A DNA stretch of 64,000 bases from Bacteroidales bacterium (GTDB lineage Bacteria > Bacteroidota > Bacteroidia > Bacteroidales > VadinHA17), in assembly GCA_050014255.1 (NCBI GenBank), contig JBEKDR010000009.1, forward strand, positions 4,750 through 68,749, read 5' to 3'. Positions 24,622 to 58,504 of this stretch are shown here, piece by piece. Within the stretch, counting starts at the first letter, position 1; every line of letters starts with the position of its first letter. A program made the translations under genes and the position numbers. The notes under the pieces were generated by a model, which saw nothing but the letters and a program-made list of their open reading frames with translations, was not told where the DNA came from and did no database searches.

Positions 24622-24705
24622 GGTGAACCAATCGAGGAACATGGTTTTTTTTCGAAAATGTTCACCTTTTTATGTAATGCATTGTTTTGCAGTATTTTGC
24701 GTGAC
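24622..24705 (+). repeat. S element, diverged copy A (5' box and GCATTGT box only)
   Basis: GGTGAACCAATCGAGG matches the 5' box of the other copies. GCATTGT sits at the same offset (about 58). The 3' box is not conserved. Confidence 0.45.
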
Positions 24706-24751
24706 AACTTATTAGATTTTTGTATTTAAAATTTGTAATATTCTTTGTATT

Positions 24752-25009
24752 ATGGAAACAAATAGGTGTACAGTAAGGGTATTTATAAGAGGATTCAGAC
24801 TCAATAAAGATGGAAGAGCACCAGTTCTTTTAAGGCTAACCGTTAATGGAAAGCGTTGGGATTCAGCTCTTAAGGTGGCAATTAACCCTGATGATTGGGA
24901 TCCGATAAAAGAAAAAGCTACAGGAGAAGATAGCTTTTCGAACCTCTTAAATGAGACAATTGATTCTTTAAACTTAAAAACGAGACAATTAAAATCTCCG
25001 ATACTATAA
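24752..25009 (+). pseudogene. tyrosine integrase, N-terminal (Arm DNA-binding) fragment only
   Basis: VRVFIRGFRLNKDGRAPVLLRLTVNGKRW..INPDDWD is the typical N-terminus of Bacteroidota phage-type integrases (about 400 aa). The frame stops after 85 codons. Confidence 0.7.
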
Positions 25010-25410
25010 GAGAATGGGAAAGAGAGCAAACACTTCCTAGAGAATGTGTTTTTTGTGGTTCGAAAGAGTATCTTTCAACTGATCATCTGATCCCTAAAAA
25101 TAGAGGAGGTGACGATTCTTCAGATAATTTAGTACTGGCTTGTAAATCATGCAATTCTTCTAGGAGTGATAAAGGAATTTTTGAATGGTTCGGTTTGGAG
25201 AAAAAAGATGAGTTACACAGACTAGTTGCTGGAAAGTATCTTAAACAATTGCTTAGAATTCATAAGGAAGAAGGTACCATAAATGTGACAAAAAATGACC
25301 TGGATAAACTGTGTGAAAAATGTCCCCTTCCTTATATTTGTTCAGAATGGGATAAAGTTAATTCATTAACATGCTTTTGTCTGGAGAGTATTCTGCTATA
25401 TAAATCTTGA
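24964..25410 (+). pseudogene. HNH endonuclease reading frame without a canonical start codon
   Basis: Frame open from 24964. Reads ..CVFCGSKEYLSTDHLIPKNRGGDDSSDNLVLACKSCNSSRSDKG.. (HNH/CxxC pairs). The first ATG/GTG/TTG is the TTG at 25195, downstream of the catalytic motif. Confidence 0.6.
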
Positions 25411-25451
25411 TTTTAATACTTCCATATATCATTTTTAAAGTTAATTAATTA

Positions 25452-25508
25452 AGCCAGGTAGGATAATTTGTTAGGACGAGAAAACTATCATAATTCTTGA
25501 TGGCTCCT
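25452..25508 (+). repeat. possible internally deleted R element (R6)
   Basis: AGCCAGGTAGGAT..AATTTGTTAGGAC..AACTATCATAA..GATGGCT resembles the R 5' end, AATTTGTTTCGGCCAACTATGGTCAA and the 3' end. Confidence 0.25.
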
Positions 25509-25648
25509 GCTAAAGTCAATTGGAATACTAACCTTCCATAGCCTTTATTGTTTTTTGATTTAATCCTGCAAATCATATTTATAAACTTCCACAGCTGGAA
25601 CAGTCGTGGAGGTTTCCTTTTTTAATGAGATTAAGTAGAAATCTATCA

Positions 25649-25731
25649 GGTGAACCAAAAGGTATACCAAATTTATTGAAGCTTTTAAATAATTGATTAT
25701 TAAAGCATTGTAAAATAGGTTCGGGAGGGAG
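25649..25731 (+). repeat. S element copy B
   Basis: GGTGAACCAAAAGG ... TTGATTATTAA ... GCATTGTAAAATAGGTTCGGGAGGGAG. 83 nt. Confidence 0.8.
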
Positions 25732-25922
25732 TCACTCTGAAGGCAATTTCAGATATCTCTTATAAATGAATACATTACTCGGACAATTTGACATAAAGAA
25801 ATTTTTATTTCTGCAATTTAAACAGGGTAATATGTAAATACCGGTTAAATGTTGAATGAACATTAAAGGTAAAGCTATGATTGATCGATTTTTTCGCTTT
25901 AATCCGATTTGATTGCGACGGA

Positions 25923-28064
25923 TCAGGTTTTTTTCATTGCAGTCAATACTCTCTCCTGTGTCATGGGTAGTTGATACAACCTTGCACCCATAGCATCAAA
26001 AACAGCATTGGCAATAACAGCTCCCATACAAATAATTGTTGGTTCTCCTCCTCCTTGTGGTGGTTGATCTTTTCTGTCCATTATCACTGTATCAATTTTG
26101 GGGACCCAAGAAAAACGTGGTATCTCATAAGTATCAAAAGAATGGTTTTTGATATCTCCTCCCTGAAATTGTATTTCTTCAGTCAGAGTATATCCCATTC
26201 CCATGGTAATGCACCCTTCCATTTGTATTGTTGTACCCTGAGGATTAACGCACAGTCCCATATCCTGTGCACAAGCCACACGAATTACCTGAACATGTCC
26301 GGTATTTTTATCCACCTTCACTTCAGCAATATGAGCTACCAGGGTTCCAACATCTGTTCCGCAAGCAATTCCATAGCCCCTGCCACTAGGGTTTTTGGCA
26401 GGTGTATAACCGAATTTTTCGGCTGCTGCTTTTAACACTGCAATCATTTTCTCCTCCTTGAGATTCATGAGGCGAAACTCCAATGGATCTTTACCTGCCT
26501 TAGAAGCCATTATGTCTATTTGTGACTCCCTTGCAAAGGAGTTGGTATTGTTACCAGGTGCTCGCCAGGCTCCTGTACCAAAGGGATGAACTGATCCCCC
26601 GGTATAGTTTATTGTTCTGGCGTTTGGAACATCATAGATAATATCTGATCCCCTTGCTCCGGCATAATAGGTATTATAATCCCAGAGTGTAATTTTGCCT
26701 GATTTATCCATTCCCGATGTGATTTTCACAACGGCTGCCGGACGGAACGTATCATAAAAGAACTCTTCCTGCCGTGTCCATGCAACTACCACAGGTCTAC
26801 CGGTGATCTGTGCAAGTTTTACGGCTTCAACTGCCTGCCTGTGTGCTGATTTTCCGCCAAAACCACCTCCCAGGAAAGGTGTTTTTATCCTTACTTTTTC
26901 AAGCGGAACGTTCATTTCACGGGCAATTGTTTCCTGTGCCCTGAAAGGTTGTTGTGTAGAGACCCATACTGTAATTTTATCACCTTCTATAATAGCTGTT
27001 GCAGCATGAGGTTCAATTGTTGCATGTGCCACATAACTGTTATGAAATTCAGACTCTGTAATGGCATCAGAAATTTTTCTACCGGTTTCCAGATCTCCAT
27101 TGCTCCTTATAACATTAGTTTCTGAATTTGCCTTCAGGATCCGATCAAAAATGGTTTTATCATCAACCTCTATTTCATTGAATGAGTACTCGGCTTTTAC
27201 TTTGACAATCGCCTGATCAACCTTATCTCTGTCATCACTCACTACAGCAATAAAATCTCCATCGTGTACAATCTGGATACCTTTTATCTTTTCAGCTTCC
27301 GATACATCAGCAGTTAATAATTTTGCTCCATGCGACGGAGGTCTGAGTAAACGTGCATGTAACAATCCTGACAACTGAATATCAGCAGAAAATTTGGCCT
27401 CTCCAGTGACCTTGAGCTGGGAATCCTGATGTAAATATGGTTTCCCGACATATTTGAATTTTGTATAATCCTTTAATTCCGGTTTGCCATCAAGGTGTTT
27501 TTCAATTCTTTTTCCTTTTGTCAACTCACCATAGCTGACTTTACTCTTGTAGTTCTTAATATCGCTGATAATGCCATCCTTTACCTCCAGTTGTGATACA
27601 GGCACCTGAAGGTAATCCGAACCCAATTGCATTAATACTGTTTTTGCTTCGGCAGCTGCGACTCTCATGTGTGGACTGAACGAACGTGTTGTCTGGGAAC
27701 CATTTGTGCCGCCATCCCATGGGCACAGGTCGGTATCACCCATAATCATCTTTACGCTCTCAAACGATACCTCAAGCTCATCTGCCATTATCTGGGCAAG
27801 TGATGTAATTGCTCCTTGTCCCATTTCAATTTTCCCGGTATAGCAGTTCACCGAGCCATCTTCCGCAATCTGGAGGAAAGCATTAAATTCTGTTGGTAAT
27901 GATCTGCCCTGTGGGATTTGTAATCCAAGAAGTTTAAAAGGATCCCGGGGTTGGAAAAAGATGAATATTCCACCACCGAGAAGTTTAAAAAAGTCTCTTC
28001 TTTTCATCCCGGTACGGTCTTTTGACTTTAATGATTCATTTTCATTTGTAATTATCTTTTTCAT
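25923..28064 (-). CDS. molybdopterin-binding subunit of a xanthine-dehydrogenase-family oxidoreductase (IorB/aldehyde-oxidoreductase-like)
   Basis: 713 aa with a Tat-type signal MKRRDFFKLLGGG. Layout resembles the aldehyde oxidase/xanthine dehydrogenase Mo-binding domains. Overlaps the 2Fe-2S subunit gene by 4 nt. Confidence 0.85.
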   Translation of the reverse strand: MKKIITNENESLKSKDRTGMKRRDFFKLLGGGIFIFFQPRDPFKLLGLQIPQGRSLPTEFNAFLQIAEDGSVNCYTGKIEMGQGAITSLAQIMADELEVSFESVKMIMGDTDLCPWDGGTNGSQTTRSFSPHMRVAAAEAKTVLMQLGSDYLQVPVSQLEVKDGIISDIKNYKSKVSYGELTKGKRIEKHLDGKPELKDYTKFKYVGKPYLHQDSQLKVTGEAKFSADIQLSGLLHARLLRPPSHGAKLLTADVSEAEKIKGIQIVHDGDFIAVVSDDRDKVDQAIVKVKAEYSFNEIEVDDKTIFDRILKANSETNVIRSNGDLETGRKISDAITESEFHNSYVAHATIEPHAATAIIEGDKITVWVSTQQPFRAQETIAREMNVPLEKVRIKTPFLGGGFGGKSAHRQAVEAVKLAQITGRPVVVAWTRQEEFFYDTFRPAAVVKITSGMDKSGKITLWDYNTYYAGARGSDIIYDVPNARTINYTGGSVHPFGTGAWRAPGNNTNSFARESQIDIMASKAGKDPLEFRLMNLKEEKMIAVLKAAAEKFGYTPAKNPSGRGYGIACGTDVGTLVAHIAEVKVDKNTGHVQVIRVACAQDMGLCVNPQGTTIQMEGCITMGMGYTLTEEIQFQGGDIKNHSFDTYEIPRFSWVPKIDTVIMDRKDQPPQGGGEPTIICMGAVIANAVFDAMGARLYQLPMTQERVLTAMKKT

Positions 28065-28543
28065 GGTTGTTTCCCTCCTTTTATTTCTTCACCTGCTGTC
28101 TGAATTGCTTTAATGATCCGTACGTGAGCTCCGCAGCGACATAGGTTACCTTCCATACCCTTTATAATATCCTGTTGAGATGGTTCCGGATTCTTCAATA
28201 ACAATCCCACAGCTTTCATAATCATACCCGGTGTACAGTATCCGCATTGTAAAGCATCATGTTCCATAAAAGCTTTTTGCATTGGATGCAGATTACCGTT
28301 GTGTGCTAGTCCCTCGATGGTGACAATTTTTTTATTAGCTGCATCACTAACTGGCAAAATGCAGGATCTTACAGGCTCCTTCTCTAGTAGAACAGTGCAC
28401 GCTCCGCAGAATCCCATACCACAGCCATATTTGGTTCCGGTTAATCCGAATTTGTTACGTAAAACCCATAACAGAGTCAGATTTGGATCAAGAAGCATTT
28501 CTGTTTTTTTACCATTAAGTTCAAAACGAATTGTCTCTTCCAT
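28061..28543 (-). CDS. (2Fe-2S)-binding small subunit of the oxidoreductase
   Basis: Cys clusters GCGMGFCGACTV, QCGYCTPG and LCRCGAH. Confidence 0.9.
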   Translation of the reverse strand: MEETIRFELNGKKTEMLLDPNLTLLWVLRNKFGLTGTKYGCGMGFCGACTVLLEKEPVRSCILPVSDAANKKIVTIEGLAHNGNLHPMQKAFMEHDALQCGYCTPGMIMKAVGLLLKNPEPSQQDIIKGMEGNLCRCGAHVRIIKAIQTAGEEIKGGKQP

Positions 28544-28888
28544 ACTTATTGAATTTAGTTTATTCCATTTAAATATTTTTAGAGATTTTTTTATATAAAA
28601 TTAATCTATTTCCAAAGAAATATTAATTTATAAAGTAGATAAAAGATATTCATAAGAATAAACGATTACTAAATTTGTCTTGTCATTGAATAGTTGCCCC
28701 GACTTGCTTATTCAATCAATATAGTAATTTTGGGTGTAACAAATCATATAACCAAAATTTCACCTGATTAAAGATGAGGTCGATTTTATTTATTATAAAT
28801 GAAAGTCCCTACAATTATTTCCCGGGTAGAAAAATTGGATGGCTATTGTTCTCTTATATCTCTATTATTCGTAAAATTTTTTATATAA

Positions 28889-28974
28889 GGTGAACCAGTC
28901 GGTAATCGAGGTCCCATAGCGTTTGTAAACGGTTGATTAATTTAATATTATTAGACAGGTTCAGAAGGAGGCAG
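28889..28974 (+). repeat. S element copy C
   Basis: GGTGAACCAGTCGG ... GTTGATTAA ... ACAGGTTCAGAAGGAGGCAG. 86 nt. Confidence 0.8.
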
Positions 28975-29195
28975 TAATATTCAATATCTTCTTATTGTAT
29001 TTATAAATCTTATATAACTATATTGCTAATAACTACAAAAACACAGGTGTAGTTAAATGAAAAACTGAAATAACCGCTATTTATATTACATAAGTGATAT
29101 CTTCTTACTGATTTCAGTGTTGGTATATATGTTGCTGAAGATTATTAATGTGTCAGTTAAATTATTAGTATTTGTTTATTAGAATGGATATCAAT

Positions 29196-29280
29196 GGTGA
29201 TTATACTCAAGTCTATACAGCATCGTTGAATATCTTTAAAGAATTAAAAATTAGGTAAGTTCATCCGGGGAGGATTGCAG
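29196..29280 (+). repeat. possible degenerate S element (C2)
   Basis: GGTGATTATA ... AATTAAAAATTAGGTAAGTTCATCCGGGGAGGATTGCAG. Same 85-nt length, with weak 5' and 3' boxes. Confidence 0.35.
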
Positions 29281-29420
29281 TACATTAACTGTGAATTATA
29301 AACAAATGTTAAACAATAAATGCATCCCATTCAACCGATTTCACGCTATAACAAGAACGGATTATAGGTTTTAAATACATTTGCTTTTAAAAAAATAAAG
29401 AAAATCAATCGCATTATCTT

Positions 29421-29492
29421 GAAAATACTTAACTCTGGCTTTTAGTGGTCGATTTGAGCCGGCTAAAACTCATCAAGGCCACTGGCTTTTCC
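29421..29492 (+). repeat. R element copy R4 (5'-truncated)
   Basis: TTAACTCTGGCTTTTAGTGGTCGATTTGAGCCGGCTAAAACTCATCAAGGCCACTGGCTTTTCC aligns with R1, R2 and R3. Confidence 0.65.
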
Positions 29493-29790
29493 AGTGTGGT
29501 TAATATTTCGTGATAATATTGAATATCAGAGTATTATGTGAAAAATGAAGATACAATCTACTTTTCGGTTCTGTAGAATTTGTAACTATTTGTATACTAA
29601 ACAATTACAATAGATTTAGGCCATTTTGTATTTAAGGGCTTCAGATCTCCAAAACCAACTTGGTACATTTCCCCAAAATAGAATCTAAAGTATACAATAT
29701 CATTATATTGCAAGATATATAGAATTAAGTTATTTTGATAGAATAGTAATGAATCCACCTTTTTAAGGGTGTGTTATTGGTGAGATTACC

Positions 29791-31776
29791 TCATTTGTAT
29801 CTTTCGAGAATTGAGATCAGTCTATCTGCTTTAACTTCAATTTCTTTAGATTCTTTTTGCAAGCTGGTTACGAATTTATTGTTGTCATATACTCCACGGA
29901 CAGCTTGAAAATCACGATCCCTGGTATCAACGTCCCCATCAATGCCAAATCCAAGTTTACTGCCAGGGTCAAATTCTTTTTCAGCATCCTTCAGAATCAT
30001 ATTATTCAGCTTAATGGCATTTATTTTCCAGTCTGTAATGATCTGGATTAAACTATCGATCGGAATCTTATCAGGGTTATCTCCGGTTTGCTGACGAATG
30101 AGGCTAGAACACCATATCCAGTTATATTTATTATAGTTATTATAAATTGAAGTAAGATTCTCAATTAATTCGTCAACCGACCTTATTTTGCTGGTTTTAA
30201 CTGAATCGACCAGATCATCAATTTTACTTGCAGGTGAGAACAATCCGCAAATTTCCACCCACTTACCTGCTCCATCTGTATCCTGAACGGTCAACATACT
30301 TCTTAAATCTGTAAGATCTGAATTAGTATCCAATTCCTGGATGCGTTTAACTATTTCCTGACCAATATATAATTTCAGGGCCATTTCATAATACTTTCGG
30401 GTGGTTTTCAAAAGAAGGCGATGGATGTTTATCCCTTTATAATTAATATAATCCTGTCTTTTATCGGTTTTTTCAGCAAGTTCATTAAGAATGCTGATTC
30501 CATTAATTATTTTGCCAACAATATATGGATTGAACAAATCGAAATGGATCAGATCAAGCTTATCTGAATCCCTTCTTTTGTCCCTTATTGGCCATTTATC
30601 AATGTCTCTACGTGTACCAACAGAGAAAAGGTTCATTGCGGGGGTAAGTTCACTTTTCCCCTTTTCCTCCGAGATGTAAGAAAAAGGGAAATCTGAAGAG
30701 TCGAAATTTACATAATGTTTACCCATTACTACGGTAAATGCACCAATATGGCATGGAAGTAGCAGGTACGCAAAAGAACCTGTTTTTGATCCGCGTTCCA
30801 GAATGCCCTGGTGTATAGGACCAAGCTTGTACATATGATTGCTCTGATTTGTCCCGCTTCCGGCATTGAAAAATGAAAATAGACTGGCAATCATCAAAGT
30901 TGACTTATGGTGCGTCACTGTATAGGGTCCGGCAAAGACACTACATCCTTCGCCATGAAATGCTTCACAATTGGCAAAAAACAGTGAGTTTTCAGCTGAA
31001 TATTGCTTACCCATTTTTACGCTTTGCCCGACAAAACTCTTGTCAATGATAGCTCCACTGTCGACCTTTGAGCCGGACAGAATGATGAACTTTTTTGCAA
31101 TTACCCCTTCACCTATAATTGCAGGTGCCTCTTTGCAACTGATAATGGTTCCCTCTTCAAGAAGGATAGTTCCGGAAATCCTGGCATGACTTCCCACGTT
31201 TACATTACGCATTATGAGAGTATCCTGAATCCTAGCACCTGATTCAATTCTTCCGCGGTTTCTCTTTTTTGTCTCACAGTAATCACTAATGATCGCTGAC
31301 AGCTTTTTGGTAAATTGCTGATCATGCCTGTAAAGTACTGCCAGATAAGCTATTTGAGATGATAGACGGTCAAAAATCTGAAGCTCTCTTCCTCCACCTT
31401 CATTTAAAACATCTATGCTGGTGCCGTTGCCAAAAGTGGATTCATCACTTGTTGTAAGAGAGCCTGCATTTTCAATGACAACGTTCTCCTCAATCAGGTA
31501 ATTCGTGAGATTCCTGACATCAGATATATATACATTATCCTCTATCTCACAATTGCGGATACAACTGCTGTAAATTCCACATTTTTTCCCTATCCCTTGA
31601 TTTGTTTCAATACTGCCTGAAAACACACCCAGGGTTATTTTGCCGTCGAACCTTGTATTATGGATATTTCTGGCAGAAAACTGTTCTTTTACAGAAATGT
31701 CGGACCAGTTATCTGCAAAACAACCCTGCGAGATAAGGGCCCTAATCTCTGAATCAGTTAATGGTCTGTAGTTCAT
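29791..31776 (-). CDS. DUF4954-family protein (left-handed beta-helix-like)
   Basis: 661 aa. The N-terminus MNYRPLTDSEIRALISQGCFADNWSDISV.. matches my memory of DUF4954. It commonly sits next to nagB in Bacteroidota. Confidence 0.65.
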   Translation of the reverse strand: MNYRPLTDSEIRALISQGCFADNWSDISVKEQFSARNIHNTRFDGKITLGVFSGSIETNQGIGKKCGIYSSCIRNCEIEDNVYISDVRNLTNYLIEENVVIENAGSLTTSDESTFGNGTSIDVLNEGGGRELQIFDRLSSQIAYLAVLYRHDQQFTKKLSAIISDYCETKKRNRGRIESGARIQDTLIMRNVNVGSHARISGTILLEEGTIISCKEAPAIIGEGVIAKKFIILSGSKVDSGAIIDKSFVGQSVKMGKQYSAENSLFFANCEAFHGEGCSVFAGPYTVTHHKSTLMIASLFSFFNAGSGTNQSNHMYKLGPIHQGILERGSKTGSFAYLLLPCHIGAFTVVMGKHYVNFDSSDFPFSYISEEKGKSELTPAMNLFSVGTRRDIDKWPIRDKRRDSDKLDLIHFDLFNPYIVGKIINGISILNELAEKTDKRQDYINYKGINIHRLLLKTTRKYYEMALKLYIGQEIVKRIQELDTNSDLTDLRSMLTVQDTDGAGKWVEICGLFSPASKIDDLVDSVKTSKIRSVDELIENLTSIYNNYNKYNWIWCSSLIRQQTGDNPDKIPIDSLIQIITDWKINAIKLNNMILKDAEKEFDPGSKLGFGIDGDVDTRDRDFQAVRGVYDNNKFVTSLQKESKEIEVKADRLISILERYK

Positions 31777-31794
31777 CTTATAGGTTTAAGATTA

Positions 31795-32598
31795 TTAGGG
31801 AAGGCTATGGGTGGTAACGTTTTCGAGATTGTTAAAATACTTGACGGTTTCGACCTGTAGCTCCATTGTTGCAGGCTCGTCACATACCAGCACAGTTTTC
31901 TGGTGCATCTGAAGGATGGATACTGTCCACATATGGCTGATTCCGCCCTCTACAACCTCCCTTACAGCACGGGCTTTATTATAACCAGTTATAACAATCA
32001 GGACTTCCTTTGCATCCATTACGGTACCAACACCAACTGTCAATGCCTGTGTGGGTACTTTCCTTATGTCTCCTGAGAAGAATCTTGAATTTGCGACAAT
32101 TGTATCGTAGCTTAAAGTTTTGATTCTCGTTCTTGATGCAAGGGAAGATCCGGGTTCGTTAAAAGCAATATGACCGTCAGGACCTATTCCTCCAAGGAAT
32201 AAATCTATACCTCCTGCCTTAAGAATCTTTTTCTCATAATCAGCACATTCTTTTTCAAGATCTTTAGCGTTCCCGTTAAGAATGTTTATATTTTCCTTTG
32301 GGATATCGATATGGTTAAAGAGGTTATTATACATGAAATAATGATAGCTTTCAGTATGATCTTCAGGAAGACCTACGTACTCATCCATGTTGAATGTTAT
32401 CACATTTTTAAATGATACCTCTCCCTTCTTGTATCTCTTTATAAATTCCTGATACACCGGTAATGGTGAAGACCCGGTAGGTAACCCTAACACAAATGGC
32501 TTATCCTTTGTTGGATTTGCCTTTTTGATTTTCCCGATTATATAGGTCGCGGCCCAATCGCCTACTTCTGAGGGGTCTTTTTTAATAATGATTCTCAT
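31795..32598 (-). CDS. nagB: glucosamine-6-phosphate deaminase
   Basis: 267 aa with motifs [18 protein letters not shown] and [15 protein letters not shown]. Confidence 0.9.
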
Positions 32599-32640
32599 AG
32601 CTTAATTTTTTAAATTTTATAAATAATTTAGTTTTTGGTG

Positions 32641-34791: not shown

Positions 34792-34912
34792 TGGTTTCTT
34801 GTTAAAATTGAAATTTGCTATTCTAAATGCCGGATTAAGAAGGAAGGAACTACAGAAAAAATTATGACATATAATAGAAAATATTGGCTTTCGAGAAAAA
34901 ATAATAGCAAGA

Positions 34913-35636: not shown

Positions 35637-35749
35637 AAAAGTACATTGAATTTGACGAATTAAGTTTCTTTATGTTATCAGTTCGTTCATTTCAAAATTG
35701 TAATTTTATGTTTATAATTCATCAGGTTATTAATTCTAAAATTACGGCA

Positions 35750-38230: not shown

Positions 38231-38232
38231 TT

Positions 38233-43303: not shown

Positions 43304-43401
43304 GAAAAGCCGGCCCCCTGCCCATAGTTGGCCTTAATAATTTGACCACCAAAAGCTGGAGTTAAATTCTTGTTGTTAAGTTATTTCTAATCTGACGGGC
43401 C
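43304..43401 (-). repeat. R element copy R1 (inverted relative to R2-R4)
   Basis: The reverse complement reads GGCCCGTCAGATTAGAAATAACTTAACA..TTTAACTCCAGCTTTTGGTGGTCAAATTATTAAGGCCAACTATGGGCAGGGGGCCGGCTTTTC. Confidence 0.75.
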
Positions 43402-43690
43402 AAGTGCGGCGAATAAGTCTAGCTTTTGTTCTCATTTAGCGTTTCCCCCGCTATAAATAAATGAGAAAAAAAATTGTATATTGACCAGTTAATGCAATTT
43501 ATTTACATAATAAATAAATTTTTCTTCTGCTCCGAATATCAGTGCCTTAATAAAATACCTTTTTCAATTTAGAGCAAATCTAAATGTTTTGAATAATCTG
43601 TACTTTTTAATCGATCCCTACCGCCATTTTTAAATTTACAATTATTTTATACCTTTACAATAAAGTGTTCTTTAATGTTTCTTTTATTCA

Positions 43691-43775
43691 GGTGAACCAA
43701 TCGGTGACCTCAATTTTTAAGAGTTCATAAATGACTAATTAATTGAGCATTGCAAACTTGGTTCGGGAGGAGGCA
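43691..43775 (+). repeat. S element copy D
   Basis: GGTGAACCAATCGG ... ACTAATTAATT ... GCATTGCAAACTTGGTTCGGGAGGAGGCA. 85 nt, ending 17 nt from the CotH-gene stop. Confidence 0.8.
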
Positions 43776-43792
43776 AAATCGGAAACAAAGTG

Positions 43793-45924: not shown

Positions 45925-46033
45925 AGCCGGTCAGATTTAACTTAACATACTTAATTAAACAACAAATATTTAACCCTATCCGTTGGTGGCTAATTTGTTT
46001 CGGCCAACTATGGTCAAGGTCACTGGCTTTTAC
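45925..46033 (+). repeat. R element copy R2
   Basis: AGCCGGTCAGATTTAACTTAACATACTTAATTAAACAACAAATATTTAACCCTATCCGTTGGTGGCTAATTTGTTTCGGCCAACTATGGTCAAGGTCACTGGCTTTTAC. Confidence 0.75.
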
Positions 46034-46395
46034 AAAAAAGCATGGATAGGTTTTATTAGTATCGAAAATACTATAAACGAGTTATTTGTAAGGGATTATG
46101 TGTTATGCCGTGACTACCTTCTCATAGGCAATAGCTTGCCAGCCAATCTCCATCAAGTTGCTAGCTTCTAATATGAGCTAAATGAAAAGTAACCATACAG
46201 AATCTTTTTATGATGGTGGATTATCGAGTATGGCCCTAAGCTTTAAAGCATTCAAGTCGTCTCAGAAAAACTTTGAGGAATATGATTACGACAAAGAAAA
46301 GTAACCTTATAGGTATAAATACCTAATTTTTAGACTCTTTGCCTAGAAGATGAATTGCATTTTTTATATTTGGATATCATAATAAGACTAAAACT

Positions 46396-48158: not shown

Positions 48159-48492
48159 TTGCTTAATCAACACTTGTTTAAACTATTATGGAATCTTAAC
48201 AAACTATTTTTAGGCGAAAATATTCTTACTATTTAAATTAAAAGAAATGTTTGGAAATAATCATATATAGAATATGGCTGCAAATTATTGAAAATTTTGG
48301 AATTCCAGTGCGAGTTTAAAAACCCTATCTTAATTCAAAAGATAAAATATTCTAAGTATATTCAAACCCATAAAAATCTAAAAGGATTCATCATTATTTC
48401 CTGGTGATCCTTAAACAGATCAGGGTTGGTAGGTGCTGTTTTGAGGAATCAAAAATAAAAGTATTATTTAAATACCTTTAATAATTTTAAAT

Positions 48493-49889: not shown

Positions 49890-50233
49890 GCTATGACATG
49901 ATTTCCAGAGACTTAATTCTCACTTCAGTGAACATCATAAAGTCATTTATGGCTATTAGTTTTGTACATCACTATTTAAAAACGTTTTTATTCCTTATCT
50001 CTGAAATATTGATGTAGCCCTGGTTGGAGGTATTATATTTGCTCAGCCACTCAATTTGATTATTCTTATGAAAACTAAAGGTTTGCTATTTTACAATTTT
50101 ATAAATCTTAGTACTGAAAATCAGGTTTAATTAAAATCAAAAGAACCTAATTTTAGACGTTTTTATGAAACAAAAGTTCCCAGTGACCGTTTAATTAATT
50201 AAATGGGGATTTTCTTACTAATTCATAATAATC

Positions 50234-51511
50234 ATGAAAATCAAATATTCTTTTATTCTTTTATTATCGTTTACATTATTAATGGGATGTAAAAAAAGCA
50301 ACGAGCCTACTACTACGGGAATAGTCTCAGGCACAGTTACAGATGCTTCAACTGCCGCTTTAATTCCAAGTGCACTTGTTTTGGTTTTTGATGCCAATAC
50401 TAATGCTCCGGCTGCAAATAGTATTTTTACGAGCAGCAATGGTTCATATTCTTTTGACATCACTCCGGGCAGTTATTATATAAAGCTGTCAAAACTTGGA
50501 TATGAGAATCTTCCGCCTGCTAATATTATAGCAGTACCCTTTACAGTTGTTTTACAGCAGACAGTCACAATGGATTTCCAAATGAATCCATTGACAACTA
50601 CAGGTCTGGGAACAATTTCAGGACAAGTTACTAAATCATCAAATCCTGCTACGGGGGTTTTGGTTGTTGCTTCAGGCACTTCGGCTGGTTATTCTTCTGT
50701 AACTGATAAAAATGGAAATTACTGGATTTATAACGTTCCTGCAGGAACTTATACGGTGAAAGCATGGGAATCAGGATATAATTCATCATCTGCAAATGTC
50801 GCTCTTGCTTCAGCAGGAAACAGCCAGAATAATAATCTTACACTCGATTCAGGTGCTTCTGGAAGTGTAACAGGTTCTATTACTTTTCTTGCCACTACGA
50901 ACATAGAAGTTGATGTTTCACTTGTTAATCCCCAGACGAAAGAAACAATACCAGGTCTGACAACCATTACTTCAGGTGGAAACTATACAATATCCAATGT
51001 TCCGACTGGTAATTATATTGCCAGGGCAAGCTATGCAAATGACGGAAAGGTTGTAGACCCTGATTGGATTCTTAAAAATGGAGAACCCATGGTTACTGTC
51101 AGCACATCAGCTGTAACTTTAAATTTCAGTGTTACAGGTGCAGTTACCCTTGCAAGTCCGACAAATGCTGCAGCATCAACATTACCTTATGCAATAAACA
51201 CAACAACTCCAATTTTTAGTTGGTCGGCATACTCCAGTGCAGATGATTATGTTATCGAAGTAAGCGATGTTAACGGGAATGCAATCTGGGGCGGATTTAG
51301 TAGTAGCGGGACAGTAAAAAACATCACCGTACCAAAAACAACGACATTTATCATGTATAATAGTGATGGGCAGGCAACACAGGCGCTTCAAAACGAACAC
51401 ATTTACAGATGGAGAATTTTTGCGAGTAAAGATGACAGCAGTGACCCAAGAGGCTGGAAGATTATTTCTGTAAGTGAAGAGCAAGAGGGACTGATTAAGG
51501 TAGTTCTATAA
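50234..51511 (+). CDS. lipoprotein with repeated carboxypeptidase-regulatory-like (Ig-like) domains
   Basis: Lipobox LLMGC. Three GxVTD../..Y.I.N.P.G.Y.. repeats. Confidence 0.6.
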   Translation: MKIKYSFILLLSFTLLMGCKKSNEPTTTGIVSGTVTDASTAALIPSALVLVFDANTNAPAANSIFTSSNGSYSFDITPGSYYIKLSKLGYENLPPANIIAVPFTVVLQQTVTMDFQMNPLTTTGLGTISGQVTKSSNPATGVLVVASGTSAGYSSVTDKNGNYWIYNVPAGTYTVKAWESGYNSSSANVALASAGNSQNNNLTLDSGASGSVTGSITFLATTNIEVDVSLVNPQTKETIPGLTTITSGGNYTISNVPTGNYIARASYANDGKVVDPDWILKNGEPMVTVSTSAVTLNFSVTGAVTLASPTNAAASTLPYAINTTTPIFSWSAYSSADDYVIEVSDVNGNAIWGGFSSSGTVKNITVPKTTTFIMYNSDGQATQALQNEHIYRWRIFASKDDSSDPRGWKIISVSEEQEGLIKVVL

Positions 51512-51828
51512 AGAAATTAATTCAGTAAGATATTTAGCCAGTTACATGAGTTTTGTGGAATAGTTTTTTTATTTATTTTGACAATATCATCCATATCTTA
51601 ATTAATCTTTGGTTAGATACTTTAATATTTAAATACCCCTATGCTCTGACCACAGGTTTACAAAAGTAAGTTTCTCTTTCTATTGATTTTTCTCATATTA
51701 ATAAAACTTCAATCAGAATTCAGGTTCTTTTAATATTGTTGCCAGATCCCGACGCCCAAATCGTCGTTGAACGTAGTAAAACCAGAAACCTTGTTTACAT
51801 TTAAAAACCGAGCATCTTGAAAACTTTT

Positions 51829-51935
51829 TGCCAGTTAGATTACACTTAACATATATAATTAAACAATAAGTATTTAATGCCAGCTTTGAATGGTCAATTT
51901 TTTCCAACCAACTATGGTCAATGTCGCTGGCTTAA
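51829..51935 (+). repeat. R element copy R3
   Basis: TGCCAGTTAGATTACACTTAACATATATAATTAAACAATAAGTATTTAAT..CCAACCAACTATGGTCAATGTCGCTGGCTTAAC aligns along the full length of R2. Confidence 0.7.
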
Positions 51936-51969
51936 CTAACATAGTGTAAAATCTATTTAATTTATTATT

Positions 51970-52506
51970 TTAATAATGTACACTTGTTATTATTTTTATA
52001 CCAGAATCTTCTAAAAGTTTTCTACCTTTAAGATCATCTAGTTCAATTAAAAAATAAAATGCAGTTACTTTTCCACCTAAAGTTTCAATAATGTTGCGAA
52101 CGGCTTTTGCTGATCCACCAGTAGCTATAAGATCATCAACTATAAGTACTGTATCATCTTTTTGAATATCGGACACTTGAATACATAAAGTATTTTCTCC
52201 ATATTCCAATGAATATTTCATTTGAAAAGTTTCTCCAGGAAGTTTACCAGGTTTTCTTGCTAATACAAGAGGTCTTCCGTAAACATAGGCAAACAAAGCT
52301 CCTAATATAAATCCTCGTGATTCAATTGCTACAATTTTATTAAATTTTAAATCATTATTATCAACTGATTCATCTATTTCTTCTCTGACTAATGTCATTC
52401 CTGAATCACTATTAATAAGAGAAGTTATATCTCTAAATATTATTCCTTTTTGCGGAAAATCAGGAATATTTTTAATCAAACTTTTTATTTTTTCTACTCT
52501 TGTCAT
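51970..52506 (-). CDS. apt: adenine phosphoribosyltransferase
   Basis: 178 aa. PDFPQKGIIFRDIT and the PRPP loop VLIVDDLIATGGS. Confidence 0.85.
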   Translation of the reverse strand: MTRVEKIKSLIKNIPDFPQKGIIFRDITSLINSDSGMTLVREEIDESVDNNDLKFNKIVAIESRGFILGALFAYVYGRPLVLARKPGKLPGETFQMKYSLEYGENTLCIQVSDIQKDDTVLIVDDLIATGGSAKAVRNIIETLGGKVTAFYFLIELDDLKGRKLLEDSGIKIITSVHY

Positions 52507-52715
52507 ATTGCTTTAATTATCCTACATGTTTTTTCATCTTCTATAATAATTTCATATTCTAAATTTAAATCTAAAGGTTCAGGATCTATGTACCATCCAT
52601 GATTTAAATGAAAAGCATCATCCGATAATTTCCATGCATTTTTTGCATATAAATAATCTCCATTTTCATTTATAGCATATACTTTATTGTCTTTGGATAT
52701 AATTTTACTTTTCAT
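52503..52715 (-). CDS. hypothetical 70-aa protein, stop overlapping the apt start (ATGA)
   Basis: ORF only; no recognisable motif. Very AT-rich. Confidence 0.35.
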   Translation of the reverse strand: MKSKIISKDNKVYAINENGDYLYAKNAWKLSDDAFHLNHGWYIDPEPLDLNLEYEIIIEDEKTCRIIKAI

Positions 52716-53474
52716 TATTTAGGTCATTTTAGTAATTTTTATTATGTGATAATTACAAACTAAATTTCAAGGATCAGGGTTCATGACCATCATTATTCCA
52801 ACTTCACCATACCTTGATTTCCATCCTTTCCCATTATTGTTCCAAATTGCAGACATCTTCTGTTTCAAACCATTTTTATTTATTGTCTTATCTTCATCAC
52901 CAGTTATTTAAAACATGAAATAATTTTCTTTTAGAAATTTCAATAATTGATTCGGGGTCTTAATCCAAGATTTTTTTATCTCTTGTATTACCATTGTATT
53001 CGGGAAAGCATGGTCAAGTGTCATATTCTTTGATTTAAGCGCTGTTCCAGATAATGCTAATTTATTAAATTCATCAGAGATACCAAAATAAAATCCTTCA
53101 TTTTCAGGTATTCAAATATGTCATTAACTAATTATCTTAAGTGTTGCTCGCGAACATCCTTATGCATTGTTGTCATAATAAGTTGTGTAGCCAGACTGCC
53201 TATTTTAAGTACAGGGAGTCACCTGGCTAATCCGGTCTGGATAGACACGAATTATGCTCTGCTATTGTTTACGATGAAATAATAGGAATGTTACATAAAA
53301 CACTATAAAACAATCTATTAAATAGTAGGTTTCTAATAGCAATTTACTTTTAACCTATATATATCAAATTATCAATTATGCAACTCTACTGCTTGCGATT
53401 TTGAGAAGAACAAAATAAAGTTGCTTATAGCATAAGTAAGGTTTAATTTTGATAATGAAATAAATAGACCTCTG

Positions 53475-53588
53475 ATGTCATGTATTATTGAAGGATTTAA
53501 TTATGACATCTTCATCAGCTACCGCCAGAAAGACAACAAAGGCGACAGGTGGGTAAGTGAGTTTAAGCGTAATCTATTAAATCTGTGA
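53475..53588 (+). pseudogene. TIR-domain protein gene, N-terminal 37-codon stub
   Basis: MSCIIEGFNYDIFISYRQKDNKGDRWVSEF.. is the characteristic start of Bacteroidota TIR-domain proteins. The stop comes 3 nt before the next gene. Confidence 0.55.
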
Positions 53589-53591
53589 AAT

Positions 53592-54272
53592 ATGAAACTA
53601 GAAATCTTTCGGATCAAGCTTGGTCTGAACAGTTGTTATCTCATCCGTGGTAAAGATGTTGTGATGGTTGATGGCGGCATGCCAGATAAGTTAAAATTAT
53701 TTAAAAGTGAGCTTTTAAAACTTGAAATTCAACCATCTGAGATCAAATTAATTGTGCTAACACATTCGCACTTTGATCATTGCGGATCAGCCCGTGAAAT
53801 CCGTAATTTGACCGGTGCAAAGGTTGCTATTCATGAAAGTGAGAAAACCTATCTAGAAAATGGTGGTATGTTAATTCCAAAAGGGGTAAATATTTATGGT
53901 AAAATTACCCAGCCATTGCTTTTCCCATTTTTTAAGAAGATCTCTTTCCCAAAGTTTATTCCTGATATTCTGATCACAGACAAGCCCTATTCCCTTTCAA
54001 TGTATGGAATTGATGGAAACATTATTTATACACCGGGACACACAAAAGGATCAATAAGTGTTATTCTTGATTCAGGAGAAGGATTTGTCGGCTGTATGGC
54101 TCATAATGGGTTACCATTCAGAATCCATCCGGGTCTGCCAATATATGCACAGGATATCGAATCAGTTAAGAAATGCTGGAAAATATTGATTGACAAAGGT
54201 GTAAAAATGATTTATCCTGGTCATGGAAAGCCCTTTCCTGCGGAAGTCATGAAAAAATCGCTTGGATACTAA
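53592..54272 (+). CDS. MBL-fold metallo-hydrolase
   Basis: HSHFDHCG (HxHxDH) motif, plus downstream His (TPGHTKGS) and PGHG. Confidence 0.85.
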   Translation: MKLEIFRIKLGLNSCYLIRGKDVVMVDGGMPDKLKLFKSELLKLEIQPSEIKLIVLTHSHFDHCGSAREIRNLTGAKVAIHESEKTYLENGGMLIPKGVNIYGKITQPLLFPFFKKISFPKFIPDILITDKPYSLSMYGIDGNIIYTPGHTKGSISVILDSGEGFVGCMAHNGLPFRIHPGLPIYAQDIESVKKCWKILIDKGVKMIYPGHGKPFPAEVMKKSLGY

Positions 54273-54547
54273 TAATAGAAGTATTAATAATCAGTTTCAA
54301 AAGCCGTACAATCTGACCACATTTGGCTTGCCAGATTGCATTTAACATAGTTCTGAAATTTGATATCCGGAGGATTGAGTATATTGCATTTAATAATGGG
54401 GGAAATCAATATTTTTGTTTGGAGAAATGAAAACAGGCGAAACTCATATTTTACCTACTGGCAATATTCCAGAGTTTCTTTTTGCCCTGACGGAATGCTT
54501 AAGATAAGAGGAAGGGGATTGTTTCAAAACAAGAATAAATGGGTCAG

Positions 54548-54778
54548 TTATTCCTCAATTGAACCTCTTAGCAATTCTTTTGCTTTAAGCCAGTCATCTT
54601 CTGAAGTTCCATGTTCCCCACAGGCAATACGCTCGTGATAGATTTCCTTTGCTTTTTTACGAATCTCTTCTTCACTCGGTCCGGATTTACTGGTGGAAAC
54701 TTTCTCGCTCTTTACTGCTTCCCTAGACTCAGAAGTTTTCTTTGGTCTGTTAACTGCCTTCGTTTTTGAAGTTTTCAT
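54548..54778 (-). CDS. DUF2934-like small protein
   Basis: 76 aa with a basic N-terminus. C-terminal EEIRKKAKEIYHER....GTSEDDWLKAKELL. Confidence 0.6.
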   Translation of the reverse strand: MKTSKTKAVNRPKKTSESREAVKSEKVSTSKSGPSEEEIRKKAKEIYHERIACGEHGTSEDDWLKAKELLRGSIEE

Positions 54779-55311
54779 AATCCCATTTTTTATCCTATTA
54801 AAACTATTGCTTTATATGCGTCAAATTTACATTAATAATTCATCATTAAATAATATAACCTAATCAATTATATTAAGATTAGGTTAAAGCTATAAAGCTT
54901 ATAAAATTTATCAATAATATGCTTAAGCAATCAGTTTTTCCACACCTTAATCAGATCAATTCAGATAACTTCATGCAAGAAATAATAGATATTGTGCATA
55001 TTACTGTCATATTGAACACCCTCTTTCAGTTTAATATACGCAGTCAGTATGTATCTAAATTAAGTAACATTAACTAATATTTTCAAATGAATTGAATGTA
55101 ACATCATAAATTTTCTCACCTTTTATAGACATTTGGTCATTGGTTAAGGATAAATTTAATTTAAAACATTCTGCCGGCACAATTCATATACAATGATTCC
55201 ATAAATAAGCAGGATTAACAAATCCCTAAGAGGAAATGGATTTTTTCCACAATAAATGGTACCTTTATAAAGGATTTTACGTACAGATCATAAGCCTAAA
55301 TCCCCCTTAAA

Positions 55312-56175
55312 ATGCGGCAATTTAAAATCAACAATCAGGTTACAAACAGGGAGAATTCATTTCTTGACAAGTACCTGTATGAGATTGCCAAGATTAAGCT
55401 GATTACTGCAGAAGAAGAGGCTGATCTTGCCATAAGAATACACAAGGGGGACCTTAATGCACGAGATCGTTTGATAAATGCGAATCTCAGATTTGTTATA
55501 TCTGTCGCAAAGCAGTATCAGAATCTGGGCTTGAGTCTTGCGGATTTGATCAATGAGGGAAATCTTGGTTTGATCAAAGCGGCACAACGATTTGACGAAA
55601 CAATGGGTTTTAAATTTATATCATATGCCGTTTGGTGGATCAGACAAGCTATTATGAAGGCCCTATCAGAAAATACAAGAATTGTACGGCTCCCACTAAA
55701 CAGAATGAGTCATATTTATAAAATAAAAAAGATCAAGGCTGAACTTGAACAAAAGTATGAAAGAGAGCCAACTATCCTTGATATTACACAGGCATTAGAG
55801 CTACCTCCTGCTGATGTAACATTAGCTATAAAAAACGGTGGGAGGTATATTTCAATGGATGCCCCGCTTGTACAAGGTGAAGAAGAGAGCATGTATGATG
55901 TTTTATTAAGTGAAGATGCTTCCAGCCCTGATAAAGAATTGCTAACAGATTCATTAAGGAAAGACATTGATAGGATCCTTAATAAATTGACTCTAAGAGA
56001 AGCTGGCATTATCAGATTTTTTTTTGGATTAAATGGCAAACACACCCACACACTTAAAGAAATTAGTGAGGAATTTGATTTGACTAAAGAAAGGGTCAGA
56101 CAAATAAAAGAAAGGGCGATCAAAAGATTAAAGTATACTACGGTATGTAAAGTATTAAAGACCTACTTGGGTTAA
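55312..56175 (+). CDS. rpoD: primary RNA polymerase sigma factor (short Bacteroidota RpoD type)
   Basis: 287 aa. Region 2 is LRFVISVAKQYQN.GLSL.DLINEGNLGLIKAAQRFD and YAVWWIRQAI. Region 4 is TLKEISEEFDLTKERVRQIKERAIKRL. Confidence 0.9.
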   Translation: MRQFKINNQVTNRENSFLDKYLYEIAKIKLITAEEEADLAIRIHKGDLNARDRLINANLRFVISVAKQYQNLGLSLADLINEGNLGLIKAAQRFDETMGFKFISYAVWWIRQAIMKALSENTRIVRLPLNRMSHIYKIKKIKAELEQKYEREPTILDITQALELPPADVTLAIKNGGRYISMDAPLVQGEEESMYDVLLSEDASSPDKELLTDSLRKDIDRILNKLTLREAGIIRFFFGLNGKHTHTLKEISEEFDLTKERVRQIKERAIKRLKYTTVCKVLKTYLG

Positions 56176-56211
56176 CTTATAGAGAAACAAATTGATTATA
56201 TTCATTTATTT

Positions 56212-57840
56212 TCAATCCTTATCATATCTCTGATTATTTCCCAGTATCCTTGCGTAGTAAGCTTCTTCACCGGTTTTTTCCAATTCAGCAATTGTGTGAT
56301 TCATTGTCGAAACGCCATACTCTTTTTGTTTCCGTAAGTGAATGAACATTGCTGCTAAGTTCACTGCCGTTTCAACTCCTTTTGGGTTTCTGAATATCAC
56401 GGTAAAAAACATCTTCCAATAAAAGAATCCAGTCGCTGAGTTAAAACCTGCCCTACCACAAACCCTTAGGAATGAACGCATATAAATAAGCCAGGTTCTG
56501 AAATTTGGATTATGTCTATAATGTGGTCTGATATTCAAGCCTGTATAAATAACCCGCTTATAATAATTCGAAGGATCATAAATTTCATTGACAACCCGAA
56601 TAAAATTCTTAAGGATCTCGATACGTGAAATCAGTGTAATAAAGTTCAGACCGCTCGTTGTCTGGTCAATATCGCTCTCACCAATTGATCGGGATGCATG
56701 CTGAAACAACCTACCTTCAGATTCAAGACGGCGGGTTAATTGAGTATTTGGCAGTGCGTAAAGCAGACTGATCATTGCCATGCAGATTCCTGATTTCTGG
56801 ATGGAATCGATCATATTATCGGCAATCTGTCTGCTTTCACTGTCGAAACCAATAATATATCCTCCATTACTCACTATACCATACGATAAGAGTTTCCTGA
56901 CAGCATCTTCGATCGGTTTGTTAATATTCTGGATTTTCTTGTTCAGTTTCAAAGTATCATTTTCGGGTGTTTCAATACCAAGAAACACGTACCGAAAATC
57001 TGCATCTTTCATTAACTGAAGCAATTCATCATCATCGGCCAGGTTAATAGAGGCTTCGGTAGCAAAATAAAATGGATACCGGTGGTTTTTAGTCCATTTA
57101 TTTAATTCACGCAAGAGGTCTTTAGCCTTCTTTTTATTACCAATAAAGTTATCATCGACTATGTCAACATGACCACGATAACCTAATTCGTAAAGGGATT
57201 GGAGTTCTTTGATCACCTGTTCGTTTGACTTAAATCTGGGTATTCGTCCATATAGCTCAATGATATCGCAGAATTCGCAATTAAAGGGACAACCCCTGCT
57301 AAATTGAATTCCGATCATAATATAATTCCGGAAATTGATCAAATCATATCTTGGAACAACAGAATTCAACATATTGGCCTTTTCCTCAGAAAAATATCTC
57401 CCGCTTTTTGCCCCCTTCTGCAAATCATTTAAGAACATGGGAATGGTAACCTCTCCTTCTCCCAAGACTAAAAAGTCGGCCTCGTGGTAAACATCAGGCT
57501 GTGAAGTAGGATCGGGACCACCAACCACAACAATGCGATCAAGATCATGCACCCTCTTAATGAAATTGAGCATGCTTTTCTGTTGAGTAAGCATCCCCCC
57601 TGTACAGACAATATCAGCCCATTTCACATGGTCATTTAGCAAAGGTTCAGCGTTCTCGTCAATTAACCTGAATATCCAATGCTGGGGAAGGAGTGCAGCC
57701 ACTGTCAGCAATCCAAGAGAGGAAGCCGGGTATTTTGCCCCAACCATGTTACAAACTTCCTCGTAATTCCAGAAACTAAATCCTGAAAATTTTGTTTGTA
57801 CAAGAAGGCATTTTGTATGCCCACCAAGCAAATCCTTCAT
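56212..57840 (-). CDS. B12-binding-domain radical SAM protein (DUF4070-type C-terminus)
   Basis: GCPFNCEFCD (CxxxCxxC) after an N-terminal cobalamin-binding-like domain. 542 aa. Confidence 0.8.
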   Translation of the reverse strand: MKDLLGGHTKCLLVQTKFSGFSFWNYEEVCNMVGAKYPASSLGLLTVAALLPQHWIFRLIDENAEPLLNDHVKWADIVCTGGMLTQQKSMLNFIKRVHDLDRIVVVGGPDPTSQPDVYHEADFLVLGEGEVTIPMFLNDLQKGAKSGRYFSEEKANMLNSVVPRYDLINFRNYIMIGIQFSRGCPFNCEFCDIIELYGRIPRFKSNEQVIKELQSLYELGYRGHVDIVDDNFIGNKKKAKDLLRELNKWTKNHRYPFYFATEASINLADDDELLQLMKDADFRYVFLGIETPENDTLKLNKKIQNINKPIEDAVRKLLSYGIVSNGGYIIGFDSESRQIADNMIDSIQKSGICMAMISLLYALPNTQLTRRLESEGRLFQHASRSIGESDIDQTTSGLNFITLISRIEILKNFIRVVNEIYDPSNYYKRVIYTGLNIRPHYRHNPNFRTWLIYMRSFLRVCGRAGFNSATGFFYWKMFFTVIFRNPKGVETAVNLAAMFIHLRKQKEYGVSTMNHTIAELEKTGEEAYYARILGNNQRYDKD

Positions 57841-58096
57841 TTATATCCCTTATCACTAAATCATAAAGTAAAGATAAGCGAAAATCAAAAACCACATTAG
57901 GGCACGCAATCTCCTCCAACCTACTCCCGATTTGCAGTAAACATAAAAACAACATGGCACAGCAATTTGATGCATTAGACATATTGACAATCTAGATTAT
58001 AACGCTCACGTATTTGTTTTATTATGTATATGTTACAGAATCAATCAGCAATTCCGTCCGCCTCTAAAATTAAAAATCCCGCATATCGTTGATCTT

Positions 58097-58166
58097 GCCG
58101 GGTTAGCGTTTTAAAGAAGTGGAACAACTCGTAATTGATACATATGGATGGTCAGGTGGCTTTGCT
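58097..58166 (+). repeat. possible shortened R element (R5)
   Basis: GCCGGGTTAG ... CATATGGATGGTCAGGTGGCTTTGC resembles the R 5' end and CAACTATGGTCAAGGTCACTGGCTTTT. Confidence 0.25.
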
Positions 58167-58418
58167 TCGATGGACAAGAATTTATAAAACTTTGCTTCAA
58201 CCAAAAACAAATTGAACACAACAAGTTCTATAAAAGTTGTTGTATTAATTTTCCTTTTTATTGAGTGTATATTTTATTCTCTTTTATCTGATAAACCTTT
58301 ATGACCATAACCGATAGAGATACACAGAGAGTTATAAATATCGTATGATGTGTTAATTGGTATTTTTATAGTGCTGAATCAGAAAATTGTAGTAAAAAAG
58401 TTGGTAGCTTTTCAAACA

Positions 58419-58504
58419 GGTGAATCAAAAGGGGTACTTTATATTATTTGCATTGTAAATAACTGATTAAATGAGTATTGCCAAACAGGTTCGAGAGGAG
58501 GCAG
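58419..58504 (+). repeat. S element copy E
   Basis: GGTGAATCAAAAGG ... ACTGATTAAAT ... GTATTGCCAAACAGGTTCGAGAGGAGGCAG. 86 nt. Confidence 0.8.

Follow-up and report, generated by a model that had tools for sequence, protein, structure and literature searches.

A 64,000-nt stretch of DNA from an uncultured Bacteroidales bacterium (contig JBEKDR010000009.1 of GenBank assembly GCA_050014255.1), referred to below as the window, contains four copies of an unclassified intergenic repeat that we call S. These copies are non-coding, lie on the same strand and are all exactly 88 nt long; they are genuine and far beyond what chance would produce. Homology between loci that carry S repeatedly stops at its 3' edge, and our preferred though tentative reading is that S would be a DNA recombination module, which is recognised by protein and exchanges strands at this edge, and not a folded RNA.

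A fixed-length repeat in the window

The window has a G+C content of about 37% and encodes a type IX secretion system (T9SS) sorting domain. S occupies the following positions in it:

25648-25735, + strand, S copy B; covariance model 99 bits; 3' variant ...GGGAGTCA
28888-28975, + strand, S copy C; covariance model 73.7 bits; 3' variant ...GGAGGCAG; the most diverged of the window copies
43690-43777, + strand, S copy D; covariance model 94 bits; end ...GGAGGCAA (GGCAA)
58418-58505, + strand, S copy E; covariance model 84 bits; end ...GGAGGCAG; GAATC, which gives a U-G pair in the helix P1 described below

An initial annotation, made from the sequence alone, had listed these four as clear copies of 83-86 nt. 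All of them were recovered by an nhmmer profile (E = 1e-14 to 1e-21), by a covariance model (74-99 bits, the remainder of the window never exceeding 15 bits) and by a repeat finder, in which B-E again formed the largest direct-repeat family of the window (family D1); their length, however, is 88 nt in every case. As had been described, the copies align from end to end without gaps, are intergenic (4/4) and on the + strand (4/4), and are followed 3' of the last box by sequences that are unrelated between copies. They share the pattern AGGTGAAYCAnnnGG, exactly 55 nt, GGTTCrrrAGG. An exact pattern search of the window with the 5' box AGGTGAAYCARnnGG gave four matches, every one on the + strand, and the 3' box stood at the corresponding four sites, three times exactly and once, in D, with a single mismatch. 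The spacings between copies are 3.2, 14.8 and 14.7 kb, and the 3-15-kb segments between them hold several operons in both gene orientations. Two weaker copies proposed earlier did not survive: for the supposedly diverged copy A (24622-), nhmmer covered only model positions 2-30 with E = 0.4, and a degenerate copy at 29196-29280 was detected neither by nhmmer nor by the covariance model, even at E <= 10.

Conservation is concentrated at the two ends of S. The end boxes show a median identity of 89% between copies; for the centre, the median is 60% and the value falls as low as 35%. Two central boxes that had been read as conserved, TRATTAA and G(C/T)ATTGY, reduce to semi-conserved single positions (T39 A40 A41, T47, T51 A52, A60 T61, A66 A67). 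No indel was found among 18 distinct copies despite the divergent centre, which argues for selection on exact spacing. Given this spacing, a phased protein-binding site, one of three options raised at the outset, is possible, but neither the conserved nor the A/T positions of S showed a peak at a helical periodicity of 10-11 nt. The + strand is markedly G/T-rich, with G far above C. Inspection of S itself as a coding sequence revealed stops in every frame, and no consistent small open reading frame (ORF) or Shine-Dalgarno-led peptide was found downstream of its GGAGG.

A narrow and patchy family

Pattern scans for relatives of S, in which a box gap of 53-57 nt was allowed, covered 185,579 species genomes as well as the JGI metagenomes. 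The species genomes yielded three true relatives, all from metagenome-assembled genomes (MAGs) named 'Bacteroidales bacterium fen_*', and about 20 further relatives came from JGI/ENA environmental metagenomes. Sample types were not obtained for the latter, so that a fen origin is indicated solely by the three 'fen_' MAG names. Altogether, S comprises 25 instances representing 19 distinct sequences, all ascribed to uncultured wetland Bacteroidales. The box gap is 55 nt in every true relative; the remaining pattern matches were G+C-rich, scored about 20 bits and were not true S.

Loci outside the window are denoted here by L numbers. Copy B recurs in identical form in the metagenome contig L019, L028 carries a diverged second S 5.9 kb from the first and in the same orientation, and in L026 two copies lie only about 15 nt apart. 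Orientation is therefore uniform within each of these loci (window 4/4, L026 2/2, L028 2/2). Eight assemblies of the L014 species have exactly one S each within up to 20 kb (L052-L059: one per 20 kb). No S was present in the fetched 4-22 kb around orthologues of the DUF4954 and CotH genes in relatives with 72-85% protein identity, and no true match was obtained in plasmids, phages or IMG/VR viral contigs. From this scattered presence and absence, together with the single S per 20 kb or less, it follows that the S family is narrow, patchy and of low copy number. It also lies outside the catalogued families, as had been supposed: Rfam 15 was empty for S at the gathering threshold and at E <= 10. 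For the window plus 13 related loci, tRNAs were the only Rfam 15 matches, and around S-D and the L012 copy nothing except noise appeared at E <= 10. A full-text literature search with the box sequences returned only unrelated primer matches.

Homology ends at the 3' edge of S

The flanks of the 19 distinct instances were compared in 171 pairs, and a pair was scored as one-sided when it showed at least 70% identity in 40 nt on one side and less than 50% on the other. Nine of the 171 pairs had a homologous upstream flank and a non-homologous downstream flank, whereas the reverse arrangement was found in none (0/171). The upstream homology extends over 90 to more than 1300 nt and stops exactly after ...GGCAG or ...GAGTCA. 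These breaks fall into four independent groups (L008/L012/L014, L030/L036/L026, window copy B/L025 and L003/L006), so that the right-hand flank must have changed independently at least six times.

A comparison of L026 with L030 points in the same direction. L026 is an L030-type locus with one extra unit, consisting of a linker of about 15 nt and an S. The left flank is common to both loci, including the upstream region of a divergent tRNA-Met gene, and the right flank is common from the first base after the (second) S (local score 31; shuffled sequences reached at most 26). Because the extra S is only about 60% identical to the adjoining one, the pair is not a recent slippage duplication. Thus, the comparison indicates that S units are gained or lost precisely at their 3' edges.

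Gene order in the window, compared with that of L038 and L047, is also broken at S copies. In L038, the MoCoBD/Fer2 operon, which the window has between S-B and S-C, is inverted and stands at another place, and the homology of the window with L047 ends at the stop codon of the CotH gene, 15 nt from S-D.

A putative protein-recognised recombination module

The recombination reading draws on what was directly seen for S: its length is exact, its ends are conserved, homology breaks off on one side, one whole unit distinguishes L026 from L030, and relics of mobile genes, described below, are associated with it. In the mechanism that we propose, the nearly invariant end boxes AGGTGAAYCA..GG and GGTTCGGGAGG(AGGCAG or GAGTCA), which stand exactly 55 nt apart across the AT-rich, fast-evolving centre, would be the binding sites of a recombination complex. 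DNA would be broken and joined at the 3' edge, after ...CA(G), so that the body of S would remain with its left flank while the right flank is swapped, and whole S units could be gained or lost precisely. A recombinase or transposase substrate had been among the options of the initial annotation and is the best supported of them, given the 3'-edge breaks, the L026/L030 unit and the relics; the analogy with IS200/IS605 that accompanied it is not supported, as S has no subterminal hairpins and neither tnpA nor tnpB was found among the window ORFs scanned.

Relics of mobile genes beside S

The region upstream of copy B contains, in this order, a tRNA-Ser gene with an insert, the original tRNA terminator, copy A, an ORF for an Arm DNA-binding domain (Arm-ORF), an HNH fragment, a terminator and S-B:

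24242-24565, tRNA-Ser(TGA) region; a 17-nt duplicate of the tRNA 3' end at 24315-24331 and 24493-24509
24332-24457, palindromic element (126 nt) after tRNA-Ser, with 21-nt inverted ends CAAAGCTATCTGATAAAATCC
24621-24666, + strand, copy A; inverted repeat GGTGAAC-N30-GTTCACC, sharing only the 5' box of S (GGGTGAACCAATCGAGG) and not a full member of S
24752-25009, + strand, 85-aa Arm DNA-binding ORF (Pfam PF17293, E = 3.9e-12); the domain of a Bacteroidetes-type tyrosine integrase alone
25045-25407, + strand, HNH endonuclease fragment (Pfam PF01844, E = 1.4e-11), between the integrase relic and S-B

The duplicates of the tRNA-Ser 3' end bracket a 161-nt insert that holds the 126-nt palindromic element and is missing in L062; this arrangement is what an integration into the tRNA gene has left behind. 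Copy A lies about 85 nt upstream of the Arm-ORF, is conserved in L014/L052, L060 and L062, and could be the operator of this ORF; no other cluster of the GGTGAAC motif was found beyond S and copy A. All homologues of the Arm-ORF that were found are short (7/7, 62-143 aa), and those with fetched contigs (P0242, P0243, P0246; several related genomes) adjoin tRNA-Ser. The ORF may therefore have been truncated long ago in a common ancestor, or it may encode a DNA-binding protein that functions by itself. The HNH frame lacks an ATG, GTG or TTG start upstream of 25195 and is thus probably a pseudogene.

A similar setting was observed elsewhere. The order tRNA-Ser, Arm-ORF, S is repeated in another species (L052-L059), and two further relatives have tRNA-Ser and the Arm-ORF but no S. 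One HTH_17 (excisionase-type) subfamily occurs 250-530 nt from S in three unrelated contexts and in either orientation, and RhuM/Fic, Abi, ParE and HipA genes are also found near S copies. For B, L002, L003, L012 and L052, the relic genes stand on the conserved side of S. In viral contigs, the relatives of the integrase and HTH_17 genes were limited to integrases of 39% identity. As a separate observation, L065, which is identical to the left part of the window, encodes a 57-aa HTH_17 ORF at 9566-9739 (about 8300-8480 of the window); it would be a further excisionase-type relic in the window, one that adjoins no S copy.

Since the 5' box is common to S and the copy A repeat, an HTH_17 gene is associated with S and the setting is that of a tRNA-Ser gene, the candidate enzyme would be a Bacteroidetes tyrosine recombinase of the IntDOT/NBU type, with an Arm-DNA-binding N-terminus and possibly helped by an HTH_17 Xis-like (excisionase-like) protein. 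S may then be an att-arm-like end (att, attachment site) or a relic of small integrative elements, its 5' box being the arm-type site. CTnDOT, NBU1 and NBU2 are tyrosine-integrase elements of Bacteroidetes, and their att sites consist of arm and core parts. S resembles these sites in being a module of about 100 nt with several protein-binding boxes (predicted for S) at fixed spacing, in what would be conservation limited to the element side and strand exchange at one edge, and in lying, at some loci, near a tRNA-Ser gene, HTH_17 Xis-like genes and the Arm-DNA-binding domain of an integrase; moreover, its box also stands beside an integrase ORF, in the copy A repeat. In contrast to these att sites, S has no intact integrase beside any copy and no core direct repeat or partner end, several of its copies lie amid housekeeping genes, and tandem copies can be only about 15 nt apart.

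Several observations count against the recombination reading. No intact recombinase or transposase adjoins any S copy, and a look for a partner end, a core direct repeat, terminal inverted repeats and target-site duplications found none. The tRNA-Ser 3'-end repeat is not repeated at the edge of S-B, the flank 3' of S is unconserved, whereas conservation there would be expected for the right half of a classical core site, and S lacks helical periodicity. Copies C, D and E have only housekeeping neighbours (xanthine-dehydrogenase-like subunits, DUF4954, TetR/RND, CotH, radical SAM and cation efflux): S-C lies in 1.25 kb of non-coding DNA that separates the Fer2/MoCoBD operon from the DUF4954 gene, S-D stops 15 nt short of the stop codon of CotH, a convergent gene, and S-E is in the divergent gap between radical-SAM and cation-efflux genes. 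A true empty site for S was not recovered from the relatives with DUF4954 or CotH, in which homology stops at the gene ends and which are too distant. In addition, the breaks could partly reflect that S just sits at the edges of variable regions rather than causing them.

Weighing S as an RNA

It is unlikely, in our view, that S is, or lies within, a small, unstructured or weakly structured non-coding RNA (ncRNA) from the + strand, whose single-stranded boxes would bind a protein or ligand, with a helix P1 closing the domain and the purine-rich GGGAGGAGG tail exposed. The strongly conserved boxes, variable interior and exact length would suit such an RNA, as would the G/T-rich + strand with no coding potential and the U-G pair at P1 in copy E. 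However, a stably folded RNA is not supported. With either 4 or 19 S sequences, RNAalifold retained a 6-bp P1 (positions 4-9 with 71-76) as the sole helix. P1 is invariant except for one U-G (E), one U-A (C) and one broken A.A (L028b), and such near-invariance means that it carries no covariation. Hence, the GAACC/GGTTC pairing suggested at the start is possible but has no covariation behind it, and the UUC/GGA mini-hairpin suggested with it competes with this pairing and has a loop that is not always purine (GGTA in L026b). The small structured RNA envisaged earlier likewise finds no support in the fold z-scores, which are close to zero for both strands (+ strand: -1.0, -0.1, -0.3 and +0.6; minus strand: -1.2, -1.0, -1.4 and +0.5); single-sequence folds also vary from copy to copy.

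An inner 5-bp helix (P2, positions 34-38 with 55-59) speaks for an RNA to some extent, being 80% paired, with three of its five pairs changed on both sides in a compensatory manner and with 5-10 of 500 shuffles reaching the observed values (18 distinct sequences). A blind helix scan of the AT-rich S alignment nevertheless gave about a dozen 4-6-bp helices of like quality, so the inner helix is not significant after multiple testing and is only suggestive.

Transcription signals did not favour an RNA either. No shared promoter motif (TAnnTTTG-type box) exists upstream of S, no copy has a terminator-like site 3' of it, and the counts of promoter-like and terminator-like sites around the copies are within shuffle expectation. 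In both B and L025, an intrinsic-terminator-like hairpin instead lies about 25 nt upstream of S. S has no consistent 5'-untranslated-region position, as the downstream genes are unrelated and mostly convergent, and an RNA would leave the 3'-edge homology breaks unexplained. Other candidates were tried and rejected: a sigma-54, sigma-70 or Bacteroidetes -7 promoter inside or before S gave no consistent match; a tRNA fragment, T-loop or group II intron domain V/VI misfits the sequence, with Rfam silent; and a hammerhead (CUGAUUA-like) lacks the core G.

Less likely readings: a possible miniature element, cassette site or terminator

We find it doubtful that S is a self-contained miniature non-autonomous transposable element, moved in trans by a transposase (HUH/IS200-IS605-, IS110- or IS91-like) that leaves no inverted repeats or target duplications. 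Both ends of the window copies are sharp, with upstream flanks unrelated between copies, the termini are conserved around a divergent interior, and one unit is precisely present or absent between L026 and L030; the same-strand bias and patchy phylogenetic distribution also agree with this idea. Against it, S offers no hairpins for an HUH enzyme, the window ORFs scanned include no tnpA, tnpB, IS110 or IS91 gene, the conserved unit reaches 90-230 nt farther upstream in other genomes, and the low copy number, with old and diverged copies, shows no recent burst.

Comparison with known small repeats gave a similarly mixed picture. Like REP, BIME, RIP, ERIC, RUP and Correia repeats and miniature inverted-repeat transposable elements (MITEs), S is short, non-coding, multi-copy, extragenic and lineage-restricted, and, as with these, its copies often come after the 3' ends of convergent genes. 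Unlike them, it has no palindrome, terminal inverted repeat or target duplication, keeps its exact length at about 40% central divergence and is strictly same-stranded locally. In a MITE test, the S ends AGGTGAACC and (reverse complement) CTGCCTCCTCCC had only the internal GAACC in common, and no target duplication was seen in the S flanks, save a possible chance TTTC(T)AAAC at E. S shares with IS200/IS605-derived palindrome-associated transposable elements (PATEs) and TnpB omega-RNA scaffolds the lack of inverted repeats and target duplications, the strand bias and a sharp 3' end followed by unrelated sequence, but it differs from them in having no subterminal hairpins, stable scaffold, nearby tnpA/tnpB or Rfam match to IS605-orfB or HEARO. 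A REP-RAYT/PATE test found no local hairpin near either S end and no Y1_Tnp or OrfB among the 31 window ORFs scanned.

It is improbable that S is a double-stranded, non-folding counterpart of the integron attC site, with a Bacteroidales recombinase exchanging DNA at the 3' edge of directly repeated copies, so that multi-gene chromosomal segments of 3-15 kb and empty units would be cut out and put back as cassettes. Such movement would account for gene order being broken at S edges, for example the inverted MoCoBD/Fer2 operon relative to L038. With attC arrays, including clusters of attC sites lacking integron-integrases (CALIN), S has in common same-orientation copies, array homology that ends at the 3' edge of the site, a short insert plus site gained or lost precisely, as in cassette excision, and a variable interior between conserved AAC...GTT ends. 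In contrast, the attC patterns R'' RYYYAAC and R' GTTRRRY are not matched by S, which has GGTGAAC and GTTCGGG; only AAC/GTT(C) fit the attC core, and the bordering bases are not complementary. S also shows no fold or pairing past the 6-bp P1 (no L''/L' hairpin), is fixed at 88 nt rather than 57-141 nt and carries 13 further conserved bases after GTTC. No IntI was seen among the window ORFs scanned, the only integrase being the 85-aa arm-domain ORF, and unlike those of an integron array, the S copies of the window are 3.2, 14.8 and 14.7 kb apart, with adjacent copies in L026 only. Overall, S resembles att-type or attC-type recombination sites most, yet it cannot be filed in either class.

Very improbable is a function of the minus strand, which is C-rich, G-poor and unstructured (CUGCCUCCUCCCGAACC...), as a portable Rho-dependent terminator or 3'-untranslated-region element of the gene running into it: 10 of 13 loci have a convergent downstream gene, C is far scarcer than G on the + strand and the minus-strand RNA has a low folding energy, but the distance to the stop codon ranges from 15 to 815 nt, rut sites (Rho utilization sites) normally have no conserved sequence or length, the bias in orientation is of borderline significance (one-sided binomial about 0.05), S lies in divergent promoter regions at three loci, and both the unit indel and the edge-specific homology breaks would be left unexplained.

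Significance of S and other repeats of the window

S is unusual in that its length is fixed to the base and yet it has no inverted repeats, hairpins or target duplications; without such hallmarks, it would be missed or misfiled by the programs now used to find repeats and RNAs. As a recombination site, S would mark points at which chromosomes of abundant uncultured peatland Bacteroidales are cut and rejoined, and it could then help to find the enzyme responsible and to follow gene flow in these carbon-cycling communities. If it is an RNA instead, it would represent a new, largely unstructured and protein-binding type. The narrow distribution of the family limits its general impact under either reading, and the mechanism outlined above is a proposal.

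Two other repeats were noted in the window. The first, T, is a second unclassified interspersed family of about 110 nt that lies in the same long intergenic gaps as S:

29390-29499 (+), 43305-43412 (-), 45927-46039 (+) and 51831-51944 (+), T copies in the window
L030 7563-7670, L034 609-714, L026 175-273, L003 523-613 and L006 4762-4822, T copies elsewhere

T had no match in Rfam at the gathering threshold, and its consensus reads ...GCCgGTCAGATT...TTAACyCyAGCTTTTgGTGGTCAATTT...GGCCAACTATGGTCAAGGTCACTGGCTTTT. Its 5' GCCNGT and 3' RCYGGC show compensatory changes by eye, in a helix that RNAalifold missed. T and S occur in the same genomes and have no fixed mutual arrangement. The other is a 7-nt tandem repeat (CACCTCA/CGCCTCA), which forms two intergenic arrays, at 6048-6126 and 21626-21704, 15.5 kb apart.

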